DNA of 64,000 bases from Escherichia coli (GTDB taxonomy: Bacteria; Pseudomonadota; Gammaproteobacteria; Enterobacterales; Enterobacteriaceae), in NCBI RefSeq assembly GCF_003334385.1, contig NZ_QOWN01000008.1; one strand, given 5' to 3'. Both the position numbers and the translations under genes were made by a program. A model generated the notes under the pieces. The model was not told the origin of the DNA, made no database searches, and saw only the letters and a program-made list of their open reading frames with translations. This document shows, one piece after another, positions 1 through 49,350 of the stretch (position 1 is the first letter of the stretch; each line of letters opens with the position of its first letter).

Positions 1-3000
1 AACCCAGCCGCGTCTGAATATCATCACCCTGCGATTGTGACACGCGCGCACGGTTAGCGGCGGTAAAATCATCCTGCTGCACGCCCTGATAAATCACCTG
101 CGCCTGCGGTTCAATCACCACACCACGCCCCGGTAACCACTGATACCCCGCCTCCAGCGAGGCGATAATCCCCGACGAGTGGTAATGATCTGTGCCATCT
201 TCTTGTTCGGAAACATCATTGCTAAACCACGCGTATTGCAGCCAGCTATCCAGCCAGGCCCCTTGCTTCTGATTACCGTGCTGAAACCAGCTTGATGTCA
301 GCCCAACGGCATAACCGTGGTTCTGGTTATCGGCGCGAGTTCCGGTCATATTCGAGCGGCTGTCGCCCTGGTTATCGCTGTAGCCACCAACAATCCCAAG
401 CATCCACTCGCCATCCGTGCCCCAGCGCCCGCTAAACAGATCGCCGCTAAGTTGCACCGTAGAAGTGTCTTCATGTTGAGCCAGTTGCCCCGCTGCTGTG
501 TAATGATAATCTCCGCCGATAACACGTAAATTCAGCGTCTGACCATCGCCACCTGCGTGATCGCGTCGCTCCATCATAAACGCCTGATTTGCCGCCCGCA
601 GGTTATTGAGATAACCGCCAACTTTGGCATTCAACACCGGCTGGTAAGCAGGCGTAGGTTCCGGGTCGGGTGTTGGATCAGGATCCGGCGTGGGATCAGG
701 ATCGGGAGTCGGGTCTGGATCAGGTGGCGATGGCGGCGTTACTTCTTGCGATCGCAGATACCAGTCGTTGTTATCTTCCACCAGCGTGTAGTCATACGCT
801 CCCATATTGACGTAGCCGCTGCCTGCCAGACTGAACTGCGCATTGTTTTGAAACTGCGTGGGATCAGCTGCGAAATCAACCACTTTAATGCCTGTCGATG
901 TCGGCTCACCAATCCCTGTAATGGAGTTAACCACCACAGTTGTGTTGCCAGCAGTATTACCGTTCATCACCAATTGATCGCTTACCGAGTCATCGCCGTT
1001 TAATTCGCTATCGAGCAGTAGCGTACCGCCGCCGGTATAATCACCGTTTACCGTCAGCGTATCGCCAGCGACGCCATTTTGCAGGCTAACCGCACCGGAC
1101 GTATTGGTCAGATTGCCATTAACCGTCACGTTGGAAAGATAAGTCAGGCTGTCAGTTTCAAGGTTGGTATTAAGCTCACCTGTCAACGTCACACCATCGG
1201 TGGCATTCACCAGCGTCCCATCGCCGTTAAATAGTGAGGCATTAAGGGCGACGGAAGTATCCTGCCCGGTCAGGCGCAAAACCGTACCATCGCTGATGTC
1301 GATAGTGCCGCTGGAAATAGCATCAATTGACTGAATATCCTGATCCGCGCCAGTAACGAACGTTGCCCCATCACCAACCCACAGTGACGAAGCATAAGGA
1401 AGGATATCAGCAACATCACCTTTCAGGGTGCCTTCTTCGACACGTACCGCCGACTGCGTTGTACCGCTGGCGGTCAGCTCCAGTGTACCAGCCCCCGTTT
1501 TAGTCAATGTGCTACCCTCATCCTGATGCTGCCCGCTGCTGTCAGCCATCAGTGCGCCCCACTGCGTGTCTACCCCCGCATCAACTGCCACTTCACCGTC
1601 GGCGCGCATTTCAATATCACGTCCGTGGCCTGCCGCATCTGAACGCGTGTCAACGTCGGAGGTAATCTCCATCACGCTTTCTTGTTGCTTATCGGTAAAG
1701 ATAACCTGGCGGTTATAGTGGGTATCTCCAAGCTGCGAGTTGTCGCTCACCATCAGCGTACCGGAGGCGATTTGTGTTGTGCCCAAATAACTATTATTGT
1801 TTGCCAGACTTACCTGCCCGTCGCTCGCATCGACCACCACGTAGACGCCATCTTTCCCGTCGCCGCCGATATGCAAATTGTCGCCACCTGCAAGATCTAC
1901 CACATCCTGACTGCCGATAACCGTTCCGCTGCTGCCACTGACTTCAAGGCCATCGTTGTATGATGTGCCGCTCTGCCAGGTGGAGAAATCAGAGAGATCG
2001 AGCACACCGCCGTTTAACACGATCGACTGCGGATCGTCCTGGAGAGCGGTAAGATCTGCCGCGTCGCCTTCCAGCGAAAGCACCGCACCATCATCAACGA
2101 CTATATCGCCGGTTAGCGCCATCGACTGCGCCCCTGCCAGCACGTAGCTGCCGTTTTGCGCAATGGTGAGCTGACCAGCACCTTCGATGATGCCAGCAAA
2201 ACTGCCCTGATTAACAGTAACGTTGCCACCAGCATCGATATTTAAAGTGCCATTCTGAAAGCCCGTCAATGCGTGCACAAAAGTTTGTTGGGTCGAGCCA
2301 ACGTTTAGCTCAGCCTGATTCTGATACTGATCAATACTCCCTATCGTCAGACCGTAGCAGTCTTGCGGATCGTCCTGGCAATGCGTATCGCCGACATTCA
2401 TCAGGGAGTTGCTGCGGCCCAGGGTAACTTCACCGTTTTCAATCTGCATCTCACCAGTAAAGTCATTGTTATCTGCATTAAGTACCAGATCGCCGGAACC
2501 TGTTTTGGTGATTAACCCGGTACCAGCAATAGAGTCAACAGCTCCGTCATTCTCTGTATTGCCAATAACCAGCGTTTTTCCGTCGGCAATATCAAAGGTA
2601 ACTTCACTTAAGCCGAGATACATAAAGCCACCCGCCGCAGAGGAAGGACCATCTCCATAGCCTGCTGCGCTATTGTTCTCATCGACTAACACGCCTCCGT
2701 TCTGGCTGTAGCTGTCATCAACAGAAATATCAATAAGATAGGGAGCCGTCACGCTATTGGTATATATCGCCCCGCCATAACCTTCGGCAGTGTTATTTGT
2801 AAAGGCAGTGTTATTTACTATCGTATAACCTGAAGGATGCTTGCTGTCGCTATTATTATCGGTAACATCGATTGCCCCGCCATCGCCATCACTGTAACTT
2901 GTTGATGTATATGCCTGGTTGTTATCAAAAATAACATCACTTAAATAAACGTCATTATTAATGGTATAAATTGCGCCACCTTTGCCATCATTAGCGATGT

Positions 3001-3493
3001 TATTGCGAAACATGGCGTTAGTGACACGTAAATCGACGGCACCAGTATCGTTAGTACCAGAAGAATAGATTGCGCCACCATAGCCGCCTGCGACGTTACC
3101 GGAAAAAATAACATCAGTAAGATTCAGCGTTGAGTTTTCTTTAGCAAATATGGCCCCGCCGTTATTATATTCTCCTGTAACGGTGTTATTGGCAAACAGA
3201 GTCATTCCAGTTTCATTTTCTGGTAATAGTGAAAATTCCGCTCCTTGTTGCAAAAATACGGCCCCACCGCTGGCGTTATTGGTCATATCCGAAAAAACCA
3301 GCCATTGCCCATCAGCGATACTCCAGTCCTGCGTAATGCCTGAAAGGCTTTGCCTGCTGGCCTGACAACTCGCTTTGACATCATATCCCTGGCATGAATC
3401 AGTGACCGCCGCGACACCGTTAGCAGAGAAAAGAGATGCAATCATTGACGGGAGTAAAGATAAATACTCCTTGCGTAGAAAGATAATCCGCAT
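1..3493 (-). CDS. yfaL: Autotransporter adhesin YfaL, partial (C-terminal beta-barrel end runs off the window start); start codon ATG at 3493
   Basis: Continuous minus-strand reading frame across 1..3493; translation begins MRIIFLRKEYLSLLPSMIASLFSANG (signal peptide) followed by Gly/Asn/Thr-rich beta-helix-like repeats and a Pro-Asp-Thr linker, matching recalled YfaL. Not listed in the ORF track because it is truncated by the window edge. Confidence 0.88.
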   Translation of the reverse strand, partial: MRIIFLRKEYLSLLPSMIASLFSANGVAAVTDSCQGYDVKASCQASRQSLSGITQDWSIADGQWLVFSDMTNNASGGAVFLQQGAEFSLLPENETGMTLFANNTVTGEYNNGGAIFAKENSTLNLTDVIFSGNVAGGYGGAIYSSGTNDTGAVDLRVTNAMFRNNIANDGKGGAIYTINNDVYLSDVIFDNNQAYTSTSYSDGDGGAIDVTDNNSDSKHPSGYTIVNNTAFTNNTAEGYGGAIYTNSVTAPYLIDISVDDSYSQNGGVLVDENNSAAGYGDGPSSAAGGFMYLGLSEVTFDIADGKTLVIGNTENDGAVDSIAGTGLITKTGSGDLVLNADNNDFTGEMQIENGEVTLGRSNSLMNVGDTHCQDDPQDCYGLTIGSIDQYQNQAELNVGSTQQTFVHALTGFQNGTLNIDAGGNVTVNQGSFAGIIEGAGQLTIAQNGSYVLAGAQSMALTGDIVVDDGAVLSLEGDAADLTALQDDPQSIVLNGGVLDLSDFSTWQSGTSYNDGLEVSGSSGTVIGSQDVVDLAGGDNLHIGGDGKDGVYVVVDASDGQVSLANNNSYLGTTQIASGTLMVSDNSQLGDTHYNRQVIFTDKQQESVMEITSDVDTRSDAAGHGRDIEMRADGEVAVDAGVDTQWGALMADSSGQHQDEGSTLTKTGAGTLELTASGTTQSAVRVEEGTLKGDVADILPYASSLWVGDGATFVTGADQDIQSIDAISSGTIDISDGTVLRLTGQDTSVALNASLFNGDGTLVNATDGVTLTGELNTNLETDSLTYLSNVTVNGNLTNTSGAVSLQNGVAGDTLTVNGDYTGGGTLLLDSELNGDDSVSDQLVMNGNTAGNTTVVVNSITGIGEPTSTGIKVVDFAADPTQFQNNAQFSLAGSGYVNMGAYDYTLVEDNNDWYLRSQEVTPPSPPDPDPTPDPDPTPDPDPTPDPEPTPAYQPVLNAKVGGYLNNLRAANQAFMMERRDHAGGDGQTLNLRVIGGDYHYTAAGQLAQHEDTSTVQLSGDLFSGRWGTDGEWMLGIVGGYSDNQGDSRSNMTGTRADNQNHGYAVGLTSSWFQHGNQKQGAWLDSWLQYAWFSNDVSEQEDGTDHYHSSGIIASLEAGYQWLPGRGVVIEPQAQVIYQGVQQDDFTAANRARVSQSQGDDIQTRLG
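655..735 (-). repeat. In-frame tandem short repeat encoding a (PDPDPT)n-like Pro/Asp/Thr linker inside yfaL
   Basis: Plus-strand text ggatcaggatccggcgtgggatcaggatcgggagtcgggtctggatcagg; minus-strand translation ...PPDPDPTPDPDPTPDPDPTPDPEPTP. Coordinates approximate. Confidence 0.6.
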
Positions 3494-4026
3494 ATTAATC
3501 TAACCATCATTTTCTATAAGACGGCGTATTTAATCGCATTATACGATATGGAATATCTTTCTTTTGTAAATTGTTCAACCCGGTGCAATGGCTATTTTGT
3601 TATTATTTGATGAATAATATCAGTGCGTCATAATTCAAGTTAATAACCTTCAGGGATATCAGTTATATTTAAACTAAATTAAAGTCATGAATAATTTTCT
3701 TATAATATAAGGTAAATTAACAAAATGGCTTAGCATTTAACAATAACCGAATAGAAAACAACCATTTCGCCATCAACAATCTCTTACATTCGCTTATATA
3801 TTGACCACAACTGATACATCAGATTATGTGATGACTCGTGCTTAGATCAATTTTTGCAATCATTAGCAAAAAGATTAATAAACCATCTATATCAATTTAT
3901 CTAACCTATTATGCCGTTCAAGAAATCGCCGAACAGTTATTTTTAACAAATTTTTCTCTTCCCATTGACTTTCCCGGACACCTTGTCTGACCTAAGGTGC
4001 GCGAAAGCCACTTTTTCCTTCCTGAG

Positions 4027-4047
4027 TTATCCACAAAGTTATGCACT
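4027..4047 (+). promoter_or_regulatory. Two DnaA-box-like sites in the nrdA promoter region (TTATCCACA at 4027-4035; TTATGCACT at 4039-4047)
   Basis: Exact match to DnaA box consensus TTATCCACA followed by a near-match, about 150 bp upstream of the nrdA ATG; nrdAB is known to be DnaA-regulated. Confidence 0.6.
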
Positions 4048-4064
4048 TGCAAGAGGGTCATTTT

Positions 4065-4112
4065 CACACTATCTTGCAGTGAATCCCAAACATACCCCCT
4101 ATATATAGTGTT
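4065..4112 (+). promoter_or_regulatory. Two putative NrdR boxes (cacactatcttgcagtg at 4065-4081; ccctatatatagtgtt at 4097-4112) spaced about 32 bp centre-to-centre
   Basis: Palindromic AT-core boxes resembling the NrdR consensus (acaCwAtATaTwGtgt) immediately upstream of nrdA; spacing of about three helical turns is typical. Matching done by eye. Confidence 0.45.
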
Positions 4113-4188
4113 CTAAGCAGCTTCCCGTACTACAGGTAGTCTGCATGAAACTATTGCGGAAAGAATTCCAAAAACAGGTACGACATAC

Positions 4189-6474
4189 ATGAATCAGAAT
4201 CTGCTGGTGACAAAGCGCGACGGTAGCACAGAGCGCATCAATCTCGACAAAATCCATCGCGTTCTGGATTGGGCGGCAGAAGGACTGCATAACGTTTCGA
4301 TTTCCCAGGTCGAGCTGCGCTCCCACATTCAGTTTTATGACGGTATCAAGACCTCTGACATCCACGAAACCATTATCAAGGCTGCCGCAGACCTGATCTC
4401 CCGTGATGCGCCGGATTATCAGTATCTCGCCGCGCGCCTGGCGATCTTCCACCTGCGTAAAAAAGCCTACGGCCAGTTTGAGCCGCCTGCGCTGTACGAC
4501 CACGTGGTGAAAATGGTCGAGATGGGCAAATACGATAATCATCTGCTGGAAGACTACACGGAAGAAGAGTTCAAGCAGATGGACACCTTTATCGATCACG
4601 ACCGTGATATGACCTTCTCTTATGCTGCCGTTAAGCAGCTGGAAGGCAAATATCTGGTACAGAACCGCGTGACCGGCGAAATCTATGAGAGCGCCCAGTT
4701 CCTTTATATTCTAGTTGCCGCGTGCTTGTTCTCGAACTACCCGCGTGAAACGCGCCTGCAATATGTGAAGCGTTTTTACGACGCGGTTTCCACATTTAAA
4801 ATTTCGCTGCCGACGCCAATCATGTCCGGCGTGCGTACCCCGACTCGTCAGTTCAGCTCCTGCGTACTGATCGAGTGCGGTGACAGCCTGGATTCCATCA
4901 ACGCCACCTCCAGCGCGATTGTTAAATACGTTTCCCAGCGTGCCGGGATCGGCATCAACGCCGGGCGTATTCGTGCGCTGGGTAGCCCGATTCGCGGTGG
5001 TGAAGCGTTCCATACCGGCTGCATTCCGTTCTACAAACATTTCCAGACAGCGGTGAAATCCTGCTCTCAGGGCGGTGTGCGCGGCGGTGCGGCAACGCTG
5101 TTCTACCCGATGTGGCATCTGGAAGTGGAAAGCCTGCTGGTGTTGAAAAACAACCGTGGTGTGGAAGGCAACCGCGTGCGTCATATGGACTACGGGGTAC
5201 AAATCAACAAACTGATGTATACCCGTCTGCTGAAAGGTGAAGATATCACCCTGTTCAGCCCGTCCGACGTACCGGGGCTGTACGACGCGTTCTTCGCCGA
5301 TCAGGAAGAGTTTGAACGTCTGTATACCAAATATGAGAAAGACGACAGCATCCGCAAGCAGCGTGTGAAAGCCGTTGAGCTGTTCTCGCTGATGATGCAG
5401 GAACGTGCGTCTACCGGTCGTATCTATATTCAGAACGTTGACCACTGCAATACCCATAGCCCGTTTGATCCGGCCATCGCGCCAGTGCGTCAGTCTAACC
5501 TGTGCCTGGAGATAGCCCTGCCGACCAAACCGCTGAACGACGTCAACGACGAGAACGGTGAAATCGCGCTGTGTACGCTGTCTGCTTTCAACCTGGGCGC
5601 AATTAATAACCTGGATGAACTGGAAGAGCTGGCAATTCTGGCGGTTCGTGCACTTGACGCGCTGCTGGATTATCAGGATTACCCGATCCCGGCCGCCAAA
5701 CGTGGAGCGATGGGTCGTCGTACGCTGGGTATTGGTGTGATCAACTTCGCTTACTACCTGGCGAAGCACGGTAAACGCTACTCCGACGGCAGCGCCAACA
5801 ACCTGACGCATAAAACCTTCGAAGCCATTCAGTATTACCTGCTGAAAGCCTCTAATGAGCTGGCGAAAGAGCAAGGCGCGTGCCCGTGGTTTAACGAAAC
5901 CACTTACGCGAAAGGGATCCTGCCGATCGATACCTATAAGAAAGATCTGGATACCATCGCTAATGAGCCGCTGCATTACGACTGGGAAGCTCTGCGTGAG
6001 TCAATCAAAACGCACGGTCTGCGTAACTCCACGCTTTCTGCTCTGATGCCGTCCGAGACTTCTTCGCAGATCTCTAACGCCACTAACGGTATTGAACCGC
6101 CGCGCGGTTACGTCAGCATCAAAGCGTCGAAAGACGGTATTTTGCGCCAGGTGGTGCCGGACTACGAGCACCTGCACGACGCCTATGAGCTGCTGTGGGA
6201 AATGCCGGGTAACGATGGTTATCTGCAACTGGTGGGTATCATGCAGAAATTTATCGATCAGTCGATCTCTGCCAACACCAACTACGATCCGTCACGCTTC
6301 CCGTCAGGAAAAGTGCCGATGCAGCAGTTGCTGAAAGACCTGCTCACCGCCTACAAATTCGGGGTCAAAACACTGTATTATCAGAACACCCGTGACGGCG
6401 CTGAAGACGCACAAGACGATCTGGTGCCGTCAATCCAGGACGATGGCTGCGAAAGCGGCGCATGTAAGATCTGA
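4189..6474 (+). CDS. nrdA: Class Ia ribonucleoside-diphosphate reductase alpha subunit (761 aa)
   Basis: ORF track 4189..6474; translation [32 protein letters not shown]... ending ...[11 protein letters not shown] matches recalled NrdA, including the C-terminal Cys pair. Confidence 0.97.
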
Positions 6475-9224: not shown

Positions 9225-9250
9225 CAGGATGGCGCATGAACGCCATCCTG
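9225..9250. terminator. GC-rich hairpin (caggatggcg-catgaa-cgccatcctg) between convergent yfaH remnant and glpQ; candidate glpTQ terminator
   Basis: Perfect 10-bp inverted repeat with a 6-nt loop directly downstream of the glpQ stop; no strong T-run, so assignment is tentative. Confidence 0.4.
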
Positions 9251-17325: not shown

Positions 17326-17333
17326 TTAACACA

Positions 17334-17361
17334 GGCCCACAGCCGATCCCCATGGGCCTTT
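17334..17361 (+). terminator. Hairpin (ggccca...tgggcc) followed by TTT, between convergent ypaA and rhmA
   Basis: Inverted repeat ggcccacagccgatccccatgggcc followed by tttgat, directly after the ypaA stop. Confidence 0.45.
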
Positions 17362-24303: not shown

Positions 24304-24341
24304 CAATGATGACAGCCATTACTGGCTGTCAGATTGAAAAT

Positions 24342-25136: not shown

Positions 25137-25153
25137 CTTAAGGTTAAGTTAAT
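25137..25153 (+). promoter_or_regulatory. PmrA (BasR) box-like direct repeat CTTAAG-gttaa-GTTAAT upstream of arnB
   Basis: Hexamer repeat with 5-bp spacer resembling the PmrA box (YTTAAK-N5-YTTAAK), about 80 bp upstream of arnB; arn is the canonical PmrA-activated operon. Confidence 0.55.
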
Positions 25154-29345: not shown

Positions 29346-30232
29346 CCAAAGTAGGCTTACGCATTGATGTCGATACCTTTCGTGGCACCCGTGAAGGCGT
29401 GCCGCGTCTGCTGGAAATCTTGAGTAAGCATAATATTCAGGCCAGCATTTTTTTCAGCGTCGGCCCGGACAATATGGGCCGCCATCTCTGGCGACTGGTG
29501 AAGCCACAGTTTTTGTGGAAGATGCTGCGCTCAAACGCGGCATCGCTTTATGGCTGGGATATTTTACTGGCAGGTACGGCCTGGCCAGGTAAAGAGATTG
29601 GTCATGCCAATGCCGATATCATTCGTGAAGCGGCTAAACATCACGAAGTCGGCCTGCACGCCTGGGATCACCATGCCTGGCAAGCCCGTAGCGGTAACTG
29701 GGATCGGCAAACAATGATCGACGATATTGCACGCGGTCTTCGCACTCTGGAAGAGATTATCGGTCAACCGGTAACCTGTTCTGCCGCTGCGGGCTGGCGT
29801 GCCGACCAGAAGGTGATCGAAGCAAAAGAAGCGTTCCATTTGCGCTACAACAGCGATTGTCGTGGGGCCATGCCGTTCCGTCCATTGCTCGAATCAGGAA
29901 ACCCTGGCACTGCGCAAATTCCGGTGACCTTACCCACCTGGGATGAAGTGATTGGTCGGGATGTGAAAGCAGAAGATTTTAACGGTTGGTTACTCAACCG
30001 CATCCTGCGAGATAAAGGCACGCCGGTTTATACCATTCATGCAGAAGTTGAAGGCTGCGCTTATCAGCATAATTTTGTGGATCTCCTCAAACGCGCAGCT
30101 CAGGAAGGCGTGACATTTTGCCCTTTAAGCGAACTGTTATCAGAGACGTTGCCGCTCGGACAAGTTGTTCGCGGAAATATTGCCGGACGTGAAGGCTGGC
30201 TGGGTTGCCAACAAATTGCGGGTAGTCGCTGA
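29342..30232 (+). CDS. arnD: 4-deoxy-4-formamido-L-arabinose-phosphoundecaprenol deformylase (296 aa)
   Basis: ORF 29342..30232; 4-nt overlap with arnA. Confidence 0.96.
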
Positions 30233-31884
30233 TGAAATCGGTACGTTACCTTATCGGCCTCTTCGCGTTTATTGCCTGCTATTACCTGTTACCGATCAGC
30301 ACGCGTCTGCTCTGGCAACCCGATGAAACGCGTTATGCGGAAATCAGTCGAGAAATGCTGGCATCCGGCGACTGGATTGTGCCCCATCTGTTAGGGCTAC
30401 GTTATTTCGAAAAACCCATTGCCGGATACTGGATTAACAGCATTGGGCAATGGCTATTTGGCGCGAATAACTTTGGTGTGCGGGCAGGCGTTATCTTTGC
30501 GACCCTGTTAACTGCCGCGCTGGTGACCTGGTTTACTCTGCGCTTATGGCGCGATAAACGTCTGGCTCTACTCGCCACAGTAATTTATCTCTCATTGTTT
30601 ATTGTCTATGCCATCGGCACTTATGCCGTGCTCGATCCGTTTATTGCATTCTGGCTGGTGGCGGGAATGTGCAGCTTCTGGCTGGCAATGCAGGCACAGA
30701 CGTGGAAAGGCAAAAGCGCAGGATTTTTACTGCTGGGAATCACCTGCGGCATGGGGGTGATGACCAAAGGTTTTCTCGCCCTTGCCGTGCCGGTATTAAG
30801 CGTGCTGCCATGGGTAGCGACGCAAAAACGCTGGAAAGATCTCTTTATTTACGGCTGGCTGGCGGTTATCAGTTGCGTACTGACGGTTCTCCCTTGGGGA
30901 CTGGCGATAGCGCAGCGGGAGCCTAACTTCTGGCACTATTTTTTCTGGGTTGAGCATATTCAACGCTTTGCACTGGATGATGCCCAACATAGAGCTCCGT
31001 TCTGGTACTACGTGCCGGTCATCATTGCCGGTAGCCTGCCGTGGCTGGGATTACTCCCCGGTGCACTGTACACAGGCTGGAAAAACCGCAAGCATTCCGC
31101 AACCGTCTATTTGTTGAGCTGGACGATAATGCCGCTGCTGTTTTTCTCCGTCGCTAAAGGTAAATTGCCCACCTATATTCTTTCCTGCTTTGCATCTCTG
31201 GCAATGCTGATGGCACATTACGCTTTGCTGGCAGCAAAAAATAATCCTCTGGCGCTGCGGATTAATGGCTGGATTAACATCGCTTTTGGCGTCACTGGCA
31301 TTATTGCCACATTTGTGGTCTCCCCGTGGGGACCAATGAACACGCCGGTGTGGCAAACCTTCGAGAGCTATAAAGTCTTTTGTGCCTGGTCGATTTTTTC
31401 GCTATGGGCATTTTTCGGCTGGTACACCTTAACAAACGTCGAAAAGACCTGGCCTTTTGCCGCGCTTTGCCCGCTGGGGCTGGCGTTGCTGGTAGGATTT
31501 TCAATTCCTGACAGAGTTATGGAAGGAAAACATCCGCAATTTTTTGTCGAGATGACACAAGAATCACTTCAGCCAAGCCGCTATATTCTTACTGATAGCG
31601 TCGGTGTTGCCGCAGGTCTGGCATGGAGCCTGCAACGCGATGACATCATCATGTATCGCCAGACAGGTGAGTTGAAATACGGCCTTAATTATCCGGATGC
31701 GAAAGGGAGATTTGTCAGCGGTGATGAGTTCGCAAACTGGCTTAATCAACATCGTCAGGAGGGGATTATTACTCTCGTGCTTTCGGTTGACCGCGATGAA
31801 GATATCAACAGTCTCGCCATTCCGCCCGCAGATGCCATCGATCGTCAGGAGCGTCTGGTGCTGATTCAGTATCGTCCCAAATGA
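30232..31884 (+). CDS. arnT: Undecaprenyl phosphate-alpha-L-Ara4N transferase (lipid A modification, 550 aa)
   Basis: ORF 30232..31884; polytopic membrane protein, matches recalled ArnT. Confidence 0.96.
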
Positions 31885-32216
31885 TCTGGCTAACATTAGT
31901 CTTTGCCAGCTTGCTTAGCGTTGCCGGGCAGTTGTGTCAGAAACAGGCAACCTGCTTTGTGGCGATAAACAAACGGCGCAAACATATCGTGCTGTGGCTG
32001 GGACTGGCGCTGGCTTGTCTTGGTCTTGCCATGGTGCTCTGGCTGCTGGTCTTGCAGAACGTACCGGTAGGCATTGCTTACCCGATGTTAAGTCTGAATT
32101 TTGTCTGGGTGACGCTGGCTGCAGTAAAACTGTGGCACGAACCGGTATCGCCGCGTCACTGGTGTGGGGTGGCGTTCATTATTGGCGGCATTGTGATCCT
32201 CGGGAGTACGGTGTAA
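31881..32216 (+). CDS. arnE: Undecaprenyl-phosphate-Ara4N flippase subunit ArnE (111 aa)
   Basis: ORF 31881..32216; small SMR/EamA-like membrane protein; 4-nt overlap with arnT. Confidence 0.92.
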
Positions 32217-32602
32217 TGGGCCTGATGTGGGGATTATTCAGCGTCATTATTGCCTCAGTTGCGCAATTAAGCCTGGGTTTTGCGGCGAGTCATCTGCCGC
32301 CGATGACGCACTTATGGGATTTTATCGCGGCTCTGTTAGCTTTTGGCCTGGATGCCCGGATACTGTTACTCGGGCTGCTGGGTTATCTGCTTTCCGTTTT
32401 TTGTTGGTATAAAACGCTTCATAAACTTGCGCTAAGCAAAGCCTATGCCTTGCTCAGTATGAGTTATGTGCTGGTATGGATTGCTTCAATGGTACTTCCC
32501 GGCTGGGAAGGGACTTTTTCGCTGAAAGCACTACTGGGAGTAGCCTGTATTATGAGCGGGTTGATGCTGATTTTCCTGCCCACGACAAAACAACGTTACT
32601 GA
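32216..32602 (+). CDS. arnF: Undecaprenyl-phosphate-Ara4N flippase subunit ArnF (128 aa)
   Basis: ATG at 32216 overlapping the arnE stop (taATGg); [30 protein letters not shown]...; the ORF track merges this into a longer out-of-context ORF 31934..32602. Confidence 0.9.
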
Positions 32603-32862
32603 GTTTTCCCTGCCACTTTACACTGCCGTTCCCACTCATCGGGGCTATAACTGCTTGCCGAGAGGACTTTCACCGTATGCAGCTTTTCACGATTAATACA
32701 ATAAAGCGCATTCTGCAAAGGCGAGAGTAAATCCCCCACTTTCACGGCGAAGTCACTCTTCACTTCGGCGATCATTTTTATCGCGCCGCCAGCATCGCAG
32801 AGCATAAGTACATGTCTGTTATCTTGTTTATTGCAGCACGATTTTTTGACCAGCCATTCCAT
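32596..32862 (-). CDS. pmrD: Signal-transduction connector protein PmrD (88 aa)
   Basis: Start ATG at 32862 ([26 protein letters not shown]...); the ORF-track start at 32892 adds 10 codons. The 3' end overlaps the arnF 3' end by 7 bp in convergent orientation. Confidence 0.88.
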
Positions 32863-32971
32863 TGCATTATCCTGTTTGCTAAGAGTTTTCACATCAATTT
32901 ACAGATTAACAGATAAACTCTTTATCAACGGCAATGGAATGGCAGAAATGAGAAGTGAAACGGAGGGTTAA

Positions 32972-34327
32972 TTATTGCTGACGTTGCACCCACTCTTTTA
33001 GCGCCTGACGTGAAATTTTAATACCGCCGTTTTTCAGCTCCGGCGGCAGAGTTAGCCAGCGCACCGGTTGTTGAAAACGGGCCAGCTTATCTTTCACCCA
33101 TTCACTAAGATCAACGCTCTCGTGGTCATACTCCATCACCGCCACCGGTCGATGACCAAACTCCTTGTCGGCAACGGGGACGATAAACACCTGCAAAACC
33201 GCAGGATGTGCAGCAATTACGCGCTCGACTTCTTCCGGCTGAATACCCTCTCCGCCACTGAAGAATAGATTGTCTAAACGTCCGACAATGGTCAGCTTGC
33301 CATTATGCATCTCACCGCGATCGCGCGTAGCGTACCAGCCTTCGTCATTAACCAGTGAAACCAGTTGCCCGTTACGCCAGTAACCTTCTGCCATACTGGC
33401 AGCCCGCAGCCACACTTCATTATTAACGATTTTCACTTCCCGACCCGGCAGCGGCGAACCAACGTCTGCCAGGCCGTCGGCTTCTTTCGCACACACCGTG
33501 GAGGCAAACTCGGTCAGACCATAGCCGCAAAAGCAACGAATCCCCTGCTCGCGCGCCTGTTCCGTCAACTCGACCGGGATAGCCGCGCCGCCAAGTAACA
33601 CCGCTTTCAGGGAAACGGAACTACGGTTAACCAGCAAACGCCAGAGTTGTGTTGGCACCAGTGAAGCGTGAGTACAGCCTGCCAGCATTTGCTCCAATGG
33701 CTGTTTATCACGTACCGTCATCCGCGCACCAGCGTATAACCAGCGCCACATAATTCCCTGACCGGAGACGTGAAACAGCGGTAAAGAGAGCAACCAATCA
33801 TCGTGATCGCCAAACGGAATCAGCGATAACACACCTTGCGCACTGGCAAGATGGGCCTGATAAGTATGGACAGCGGCTTTCGGCAAACCGGTAGAACCCG
33901 AGGTCAACGTCATTGAGCACAGACGCGTCGGCTGCCACGTAGCGGCATGTGCGCCTTCAACCAGCTGAATGTGCAGCGACGTTAATGCCGGAAACGTGTT
34001 TTCCCCATCCGGCACCAGAGCAAATTGCAGCGTCAGATTGGGCAGCAATTCTTCAAGCAACGGTTGCGGCAGCTGAGGGTTCACGGGCAACACCCGCGCC
34101 CCGCATTGCAGTAACGCCAGCCAGGCGAGCAGCGTTTGCGGCGTATTCCACGCCCGCAACATCACGCCGCTGCCCTCAACCACCCCCTGCACCGCAAATC
34201 CGGAGGCTAATTCATCGACGCGAGCACAAAGCTCGCGCCAGTTGAGTTGCTCGTCATTAAGACGTAAGGCGATGGTTTCTCCCCGCACTTGCCGCCAGTG
34301 ACGCCACGGCCAGTCAGAGAAGATCAT
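32972..34327 (-). CDS. menE: o-succinylbenzoate--CoA ligase (451 aa)
   Basis: ORF 32972..34327; AMP-binding motif TSGSTGLPK. Confidence 0.95.
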
Positions 34328-43246: not shown

Positions 43247-43316
43247 CATCATTGTTAATTAATTCGACCAGTCAGCAAATATGCTGACTGGTCGAACATA
43301 GTTTGCTAAACAGTCA

Positions 43317-49286: not shown

Positions 49287-49324
49287 CGCTCTGCGTCTAT
49301 CTACTATCCCTTCTTTTTCAGAAA

Positions 49325-49350
49325 AACCGCCGAGCATGTCGGCGGCTTTC
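49325..49350 (-). terminator. Rho-independent terminator at the 3' end of the nuo operon (downstream of nuoN)
   Basis: Palindrome ccgccgagcatgtcggcgg (49327-49345); on the minus strand the stem is followed by TTTTTCTG; also lies downstream of convergent yfbP. Confidence 0.65.

Follow-up and report, generated by a model that had tools for sequence, protein, structure and literature searches.

The convergent genes arnF and pmrD of Escherichia coli overlap at their stop codons and lack a canonical terminator

In the window, i.e., the whole stretch of 64,000 nucleotides of an Escherichia coli contig (NZ_QOWN01000008.1) that was analysed, the genes arnF and pmrD run tail to tail and share their last base pairs. 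Both stop codons lie within the same 7 bp and no canonical terminator was found there, and therefore the two mRNAs have to be partly complementary, each ending inside the partner gene. It is probable that this is an ordinary convergent junction that lacks a terminator, and that the overlap is a generic by-product. The layout itself is already known: it is annotated, it is contained in a published survey, and it is typical of E. coli.

Results

arnF and pmrD share their stop codons

A first-pass annotation had described a convergent 7-bp overlap of the two 3′-ends at positions 32596-32602, and direct reading of the sequence together with the listing of open reading frames verified it (Table 1). 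The bases common to both gene ends, TTACTGA, contain the arnF stop codon TGA (32600-32602, plus strand) and, on the minus strand, the pmrD stop codon TAA, which is the complement of TTA at 32596-32598. On the ArnF side they comprise the third codon position of R127, Y128 and the stop, and on the PmrD side the third codon position of T87, Q88 and the stop. The overlap is a deterministic annotation fact and not a statistical signal.

Both gene products scored above the curated equivalog cutoffs of their NCBIfam families (ArnF, NF002816, 140 bits with a cutoff of 99; PmrD, NF011994, 175 bits with a cutoff of 96). Because both scores are well above the cutoffs and the PmrD of 88 amino acids is identical to the solved PDB chains 2JSO and 4HN7, the overlap is not an artefact of ORF calling. 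PF11183 is recorded for PmrD homologues. The profiles stop at residue 122 of the 128 of ArnF and at residue 85 of the 88 of PmrD, and both ORFs close at the first in-frame stop. The identical 7-bp overlap was present in the RefSeq annotation of all four E. coli strains checked, namely a K-12 derivative, two divergent strains and the most divergent junction variant found, and when 5426 complete E. coli genomes were examined, 5237 had the 61-bp junction without any gap. In some E. coli strains PmrD variants of 103 amino acids were observed (P0016, P0017), the C-terminus of which diverges from that of the 88-residue form past residue ~74-77, as would be expected for a frameshift. Their ORF extends 15 more codons into the antisense strand of arnF and yields a much longer overlap of the coding regions.

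Table 1. Features of the arnF-pmrD region and of other convergent junctions, with positions in the window
Feature	Position	Strand	Basis or comment
PmrA/BasR box CTTAAGGTTAAGTTAAT upstream of arnB, input driving transcription toward pmrD	25137-25153	+	1 mismatch to YTTAAK-N5-YTTAAK
arnT	30232-31884	+	
arnE	31881-32216	+	
arnF CDS, 128 amino acids, last gene of arnBCADTEF	32216-32602	+	ORF listing, NCBIfam
Weak non-canonical terminator-like site	~32415-32453	-	terminator scans
11-bp stem-loop CUGAGCAAGGC-AUAG-GCUUUGCUUAG	32432-32457	-	candidate pmrD 3′ structure
Shared TTACTGA with both stop codons	32596-32602	both	sequence, RefSeq
pmrD CDS, 88 amino acids, ATG at 32862	32596-32862	-	ORF listing, NCBIfam, PDB
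Predicted forced arn 3′ extension, antisense to pmrD, untranslated, C-rich (C/G 1.1-1.6, 78-nt windows)	32603-32862	+	inference
Weak terminator-like hairpin, -7.6 kcal/mol, then TTTTCACG	32651-32683, with tract to 32691	+	hairpin scan
Top terminator-like site of the arn strand, CGGCGAAGT-loop-ACTTCGGCGA, -10.4 kcal/mol, then TCATTTTT	32745-32771, with tract to 32779	+	hairpin scan
Putative pmrD promoter region, menE stop to pmrD start	32863-32971	-	inference
menE, on the strand of pmrD and upstream of it	32972-34327	-	
Strong palindromic hairpins at five other convergent junctions	9225-9250, 17333-17358, 24307-24332, 43267-43292, 49324-49349		

No canonical terminator separates the two genes

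Terminators were searched on both strands with a consensus scan and with a scan for hairpins followed by a T-tract. It had been claimed that the overlap leaves no room for separate terminators, and the searches agreed with this: there is no spacer, and neither scan found a canonical terminator at or downstream of the arnF and pmrD stops, where only weak non-canonical sites were detected. A bidirectional intrinsic terminator, i.e., a G+C-rich hairpin flanked by an A-tract and a T-tract, was not found between the stops. The junction did not fold better than shuffled sequence (z = 0.44 and -0.12), and no Rfam match was obtained for positions 31800-33200. The hairpin at 32651-32691 lies about 50-90 nt beyond the arnF stop and is not above the shuffled background (z = 0.44). 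The top site of the arn strand at 32745-32779 is not canonical, its segment has a z of -1.0, and it is antisense to the PmrD codons for a stretch of 11 residues.

The junction was compared with the other convergent junctions in the first 50 kb of the window, the coordinates of which coincide with those of a K-12-derived RefSeq record; the arn-pmrD-men segment is 100% identical to K-12-derived genomes. This part contains eight convergent pairs, and arnF-pmrD is the only one with overlapping coding regions, while the gaps of the seven others range from 38 to 272 nt. In five of these seven, the spacer of 38-83 nt contains a palindromic hairpin with an energy between -15.5 and -20 kcal/mol (Table 1). 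These five spacer hairpins look like typical bidirectional terminators, in contrast to the arnF-pmrD junction.

Two observations concern the surroundings of the junction. A strong hairpin (-16.7 kcal/mol) followed by TCATTATT was flagged by the terminator scan within the 3′-terminal part of arnE, ~40 nt ahead of the start of arnF (32149-32175, plus strand). Judged from its sequence, it could cause attenuation before arnF, and less read-through would then reach pmrD. On the minus strand, no terminator-like site was found between the menE stop and the pmrD start (32863-32971). Because no such site separates the two genes, read-through from the men operon could feed pmrD, which could result in PhoP-independent pmrD expression. 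A PhoPQ-independent component of pmrD expression has been mentioned (PMC13215669).

The arn and pmrD transcripts overlap

That the arn and pmrD mRNAs have overlapping 3′-ends, as had also been proposed, follows from the layout by logic, and the pair is contained in a listing based on RNA-seq data. With ExcludonFinder (NAR 2025, PMC12288877), arnF-pmrD was found among 165 convergent excludons of strain MG1655, for which the transcript boundaries had to overlap in at least 50% of 58 MG1655 RNA-seq data sets. The same study names arnF-pmrD as an example of partners that belong to the same pathway. Complementary 3′-ends had earlier been reported for 276 of 370 convergent operons of E. coli (75%), with a mean overlap of 286 nt (Conway et al., mBio 2014, PMC4161252), and in a recent preprint the number of convergent pairs in E. 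coli is given as 704. Given these numbers of operons, excludons and pairs, overlapping 3′-ends are the rule in this species, and the complementarity of arn and pmrD would represent the normal state of convergent E. coli operons.

It likewise follows that every full-length arn mRNA contains a part antisense to the pmrD 3′-end, and vice versa. Efficient translation termination probably requires some RNA past the stop codon as well, in which case the obligatory overlap would be in the range of a few tens of nucleotides rather than 7. The end of each transcript is predicted to lie within the partner gene, at a depth of tens to a few hundred nucleotides. In 78-nt windows of the first ~200 nt past each stop, the C/G ratio was 1.1-1.7, mostly 1.4-1.7, on both strands, and most of these windows contained 9-16 YC dimers. 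The downstream C/G ratio was at about the 75th-95th percentile of the whole 64,000 nt. On both strands, therefore, the ~80 nt past the stop have the composition that Rho favours, i.e., they are untranslated, C-rich and G-poor, and heterogeneous Rho-dependent ends are expected. The 3′-ends would probably be generated by Rho acting on the untranslated C-rich extension and by head-on collisions of RNA polymerases, which have been described to halt read-through at convergent E. coli pairs (bioRxiv 10.1101/2022.10.23.513370).

Published data sets of transcript ends and RNA duplexes were also inspected. The supplementary files inspected of a Term-seq study (PMC7815308) contain no entry for pmrD or arnF, and the strings pmrD, arnF and yfbJ are absent from ten supplementary files of a p19 dsRNA study (PMC7373196). 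Both are weak negatives, arn being poorly expressed in standard media and the files being possibly truncated. Another weak negative is that the supplementary files inspected of a SMRT-Cappable-seq study (PMC6131387) have no entry for pmrD or arnF.

The junction drifts among relatives

In related bacteria, the spacing between the two coding regions ranged from +23 to -9, with positive values denoting an overlap and negative values a gap. It is +7 in E. coli, E. albertii (with TAG as pmrD stop codon), E. fergusonii and one more Escherichia species, and +6 in Salmonella enterica and S. diarizonae, in which the two stops abut in TCATGA. A gap of 3 nt was found in C. freundii and at three loci of the C. 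amalonaticus group, and a fourth locus of this group has a gap of 9 nt. On the evidence of these sequences, it is the spacer-less tail-to-tail junction that is conserved, and not the overlap itself. The conserved cores of the proteins end at "...IFLP" in ArnF and at "...EW.R" in PmrD, and the tails past the cores vary in length and sequence between genera (TTKQRY, APKQRY, AAQKTR and ARS in ArnF). Because the tails are variable and lie outside of the family profiles, the overlap looks like two unconstrained tails that reach the next stop codon. The poorly conserved C-terminal tails of ArnF and PmrD meet where no intergenic spacer exists.

A Pseudescherichia-type contig (SRR5240613; L024, 2501-4265) has no pmrD between arnF and menE. 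Its arnF (2501-2887, plus strand) and menE (2895-4265, minus strand) face each other tail to tail with a gap of 7 nt, and therefore the terminator-less end of the arn operon is independent of pmrD. This layout would fit either an insertion of pmrD at the junction or its loss there. Distant PmrD homologues were not convergent with arnF. One is located between a hydrolase gene and amn, and another (P0076, 77 amino acids) is encoded on the same strand as arnB, ~1 kb upstream of it (L019/L020, 2501-2734; L021, 10001-18567), in a taxon in which ~1.4 kb devoid of called genes follow arnF. Judging from gene order, PmrD is again linked to arn in this taxon, head to tail and not convergent.

Two unusual loci were noticed. 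In E. coli SCPM-O-B-8794 (NZ_JAATUR010000019.1; L006, 3001-4303) the arn operon is deleted; pmrD is followed by an arnF 3′ remnant of ~22 codons, immediately next to which ais/pmrG, nudI and a yfaZ-like gene are located, and the pmrD ORF overlaps the arnF remnant by 23 bp. In Salmonella enterica subsp. arizonae CCUG 6322T (L012, ~3282-3330), arnF carries a 7-bp tandem duplication (ATTGTGC ATTGTGC) that other Salmonella do not have. It shifts the frame, the ORF ends early, and the gene would be either a pseudogene or the result of an assembly error.

Taken together, several points argue for a by-product. The spacing drifts among relatives; arnF adjoins menE in the pmrD-less Pseudescherichia; more distant PmrD homologues are located elsewhere or upstream of arnB; three quarters of the convergent E. 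coli operons overlap at their 3′-ends anyway (PMC4161252); and, as a weak negative, neither gene has an entry in the inspected files of the dsRNA and Term-seq studies. A mutual dampening of arn and pmrD, if there is any, would then be modest, as a side effect of the layout that has not evolved as a switch.

A possible feedback of arn transcription on pmrD

Upstream of arnB, a PmrA/BasR box was identified (Table 1). In the pmrD promoter region of E. coli (32863-32971), no PmrA box of the form YTTAAK-N5-YTTAAK was found at up to two mismatches. When the region was read against the Salmonella sequence TGTTTATCCGTTGATGT, a putative PhoP box, AGTTTATCTGTTAATCT, was recognised (32919-32903, minus strand). 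In Salmonella, the PmrA-box-like sequence ATTAATGTTAGGTTAAT is present ~100 nt upstream of pmrD (L014, 2899-2915). The feedback in Salmonella has been attributed to repression of pmrD transcription by PmrA (Kato, Latifi and Groisman 2003, as cited in PMC2565834 and PMC3140997), and this repression loop is stated to be absent in E. coli (PMC2565834, PMC3140997). The pmrD of K. pneumoniae is not repressed by PmrA (PMC2565834). K. pneumoniae was dropped as a natural control, as the distant PmrD loci that were recovered are not convergent with arnF.

Three points can be held against a mere by-product. The spacer-less layout has been kept across Escherichia, Salmonella and Citrobacter, with two genes that act in one circuit, and the layout may therefore have a selected function. 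As the E. coli pmrD promoter is devoid of a PmrA box, convergent transcription is the only visible route from PmrA to pmrD. The third point is a stable stem-loop on the pmrD strand, which is described below. Viewed from the arrangement of genes and sites, a feedback of arn read-through on pmrD is plausible, and its effect would probably be modest.

In its full form, this idea would make the pair a functional excludon that provides negative feedback. Phospho-PmrA is stabilised by PmrD, and the arnB promoter is in turn activated by PmrA; arn polymerases that pass the arnF stop and cross pmrD would lower pmrD expression, be it by head-on collision, by occlusion of the promoter or by cleavage of the arn/pmrD duplex by RNase III, and would thereby limit PmrA output. 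We regard this as rather unlikely. The overlap forces the transcripts to be complementary and no terminator lies on the arn strand ahead of the pmrD promoter, but the C-rich untranslated extension should be shortened by Rho, and neither gene has a dsRNA entry in the supplementary p19 files inspected. The pair is among the listed excludons, where its functional relationship has been pointed out; however, low Mg2+ is described to induce both partners in Salmonella (PMC2565834), with PhoP acting on pmrD and with PmrD and PmrA jointly acting on pbgP/arn, which is no mutual exclusion and argues against a strict one. A PmrA box is found at arnB and at the Salmonella pmrD promoter and is missing from that of E. 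coli, yet the feedback known from Salmonella has been attributed to transcriptional repression of pmrD by PmrA. Finally, the tail-to-tail synteny is kept in three genera, but the terminator-less arn end also exists beside menE where pmrD is absent, and other PmrD homologues are not convergent with arnF.

A stem-loop on the pmrD strand inside arnF

A stable stem-loop was found 139-164 nt beyond the pmrD stop, within the arnF codons for LSKAYALLS (Table 1). Its calculated stability is -14.8 kcal/mol on the minus strand versus -6.1 kcal/mol on the plus strand, and the asymmetry arises because two of its pairs are G-U. None of 5694 antisense 26-mers drawn from 14 genes was as strong, the stem-loop exceeded a synonymous-codon null (p = 0.007), and just 24 hairpin clusters in the 128 kb of strand sequence were as stable. 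It was discovered post hoc, and the chance of finding one such structure within 200 nt is ~0.03-0.04. The unusual stability and the strand asymmetry hint at a selected RNA structure. The covariation in the stem was not significant (65 of 500 shuffles reached the observed score). The stem-loop is not followed by a U-tract, it sits on an invariant ArnF motif, LSKAYALLS, and the same hairpin exists at -10.3 kcal/mol in the pmrD-less Pseudescherichia. As the covariation was not significant and the hairpin also occurs in a relative that lacks pmrD, it was not accepted as a conserved pmrD 3′ element. In E. coli, pmrD transcripts may nevertheless end near to it.

Interference could also run in the opposite direction. 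PhoP-induced pmrD transcripts, together with read-through from the men operon, would enter arnF and arnE in antisense orientation; the arn mRNA would be trimmed or destabilised at its 3′-end, and the flippase subunits would be tuned in this way, with the stem-loop marking or protecting the pmrD 3′-end. This is very improbable. There is indeed no terminator-like site from the pmrD stop to ~140 nt into arnF or between menE and pmrD, and the strand difference, the synonymous-codon test and the rank among the strongest 24 clusters in 128 kb are in its favour. These properties, however, belong to a hairpin that was found post hoc with the chance given above, that is devoid of a U-tract and of significant covariation, and that lies on an invariant protein motif and recurs in a genome that does not contain pmrD.

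It is tempting to speculate that the two ideas could be combined for Escherichia. PmrA-driven arn read-through, as a cis-antisense or collision loop, would have replaced the lost feedback at the pmrD promoter, and the stem-loop inside arnF would determine where pmrD transcripts end and, with this, how long the duplex is. We consider this combination clearly improbable.

That the true end of either protein differs from its annotated stop codon, and that a real overlap would consequently not exist, is hardly conceivable: both protein tails lie outside of the family profiles and frameshifted PmrD variants of 103 amino acids occur in some strains, but the PmrD of 88 amino acids has been solved as chains 2JSO and 4HN7, neither ORF passes an in-frame stop before its annotated end, identical ends are annotated in every E. 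coli strain checked, and E. albertii has kept the overlap in spite of a different pmrD stop, TAG.

Discussion

The arnF-pmrD overlap has a practical side, and its main value is one of caution: tags, deletions or resistance cassettes at the 3′-end of arnF or pmrD alter the partner gene and its transcript. If it were true that arn read-through measurably lowers PmrD, a feedback branch would be added to the PhoPQ-PmrD-PmrAB circuit of polymyxin resistance. It could then also help to explain why low Mg2+ is coupled more weakly to lipid A modification in E. coli than in Salmonella.

With known excludons, arnF-pmrD has in common that two convergent neighbours possess complementary 3′-ends, and this very pair is one of the 165 in the published list (PMC12288877). 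The two genes are adjacent, on opposite strands and tail to tail, and their transcripts overlap and are complementary, as in other excludons. Most of the listed pairs, however, have an intergenic spacer, with a mean of 95 nt, whereas the coding regions of arnF and pmrD overlap, and the overlap of the transcripts is therefore obligatory and independent of leaky termination. The functional hallmark of excludons is inverse expression, while arnF-pmrD has been placed among them by its layout and its transcript boundaries; in the articles examined, no functional test of an antisense interaction between the two genes was found.

A second known system is the repression of pmrD via the PmrA box in Salmonella, as far as it is described in the articles that cite the original work. 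It follows the same logic as an antisense effect of arn on pmrD would, in that active PmrA lowers pmrD. The two differ in the site of action: the repression in Salmonella is attributed to PmrA at the pmrD promoter, whereas arn read-through would act from the 3′-end of the gene.

The third comparison is with the bidirectional terminators of Ju et al. (2019), as they are summarised in bioRxiv 10.1101/2022.10.23.513370. In both cases RNA polymerases meet head-on at the ends of two genes, and collisions could set the 3′-ends. The sites of Ju et al., as summarised there, have a defined hairpin in a spacer, whereas arnF-pmrD has neither a spacer nor a strong hairpin at the junction. Scattered collision sites are therefore expected at arnF-pmrD, similar to those of the template with a deleted terminator in the same preprint.
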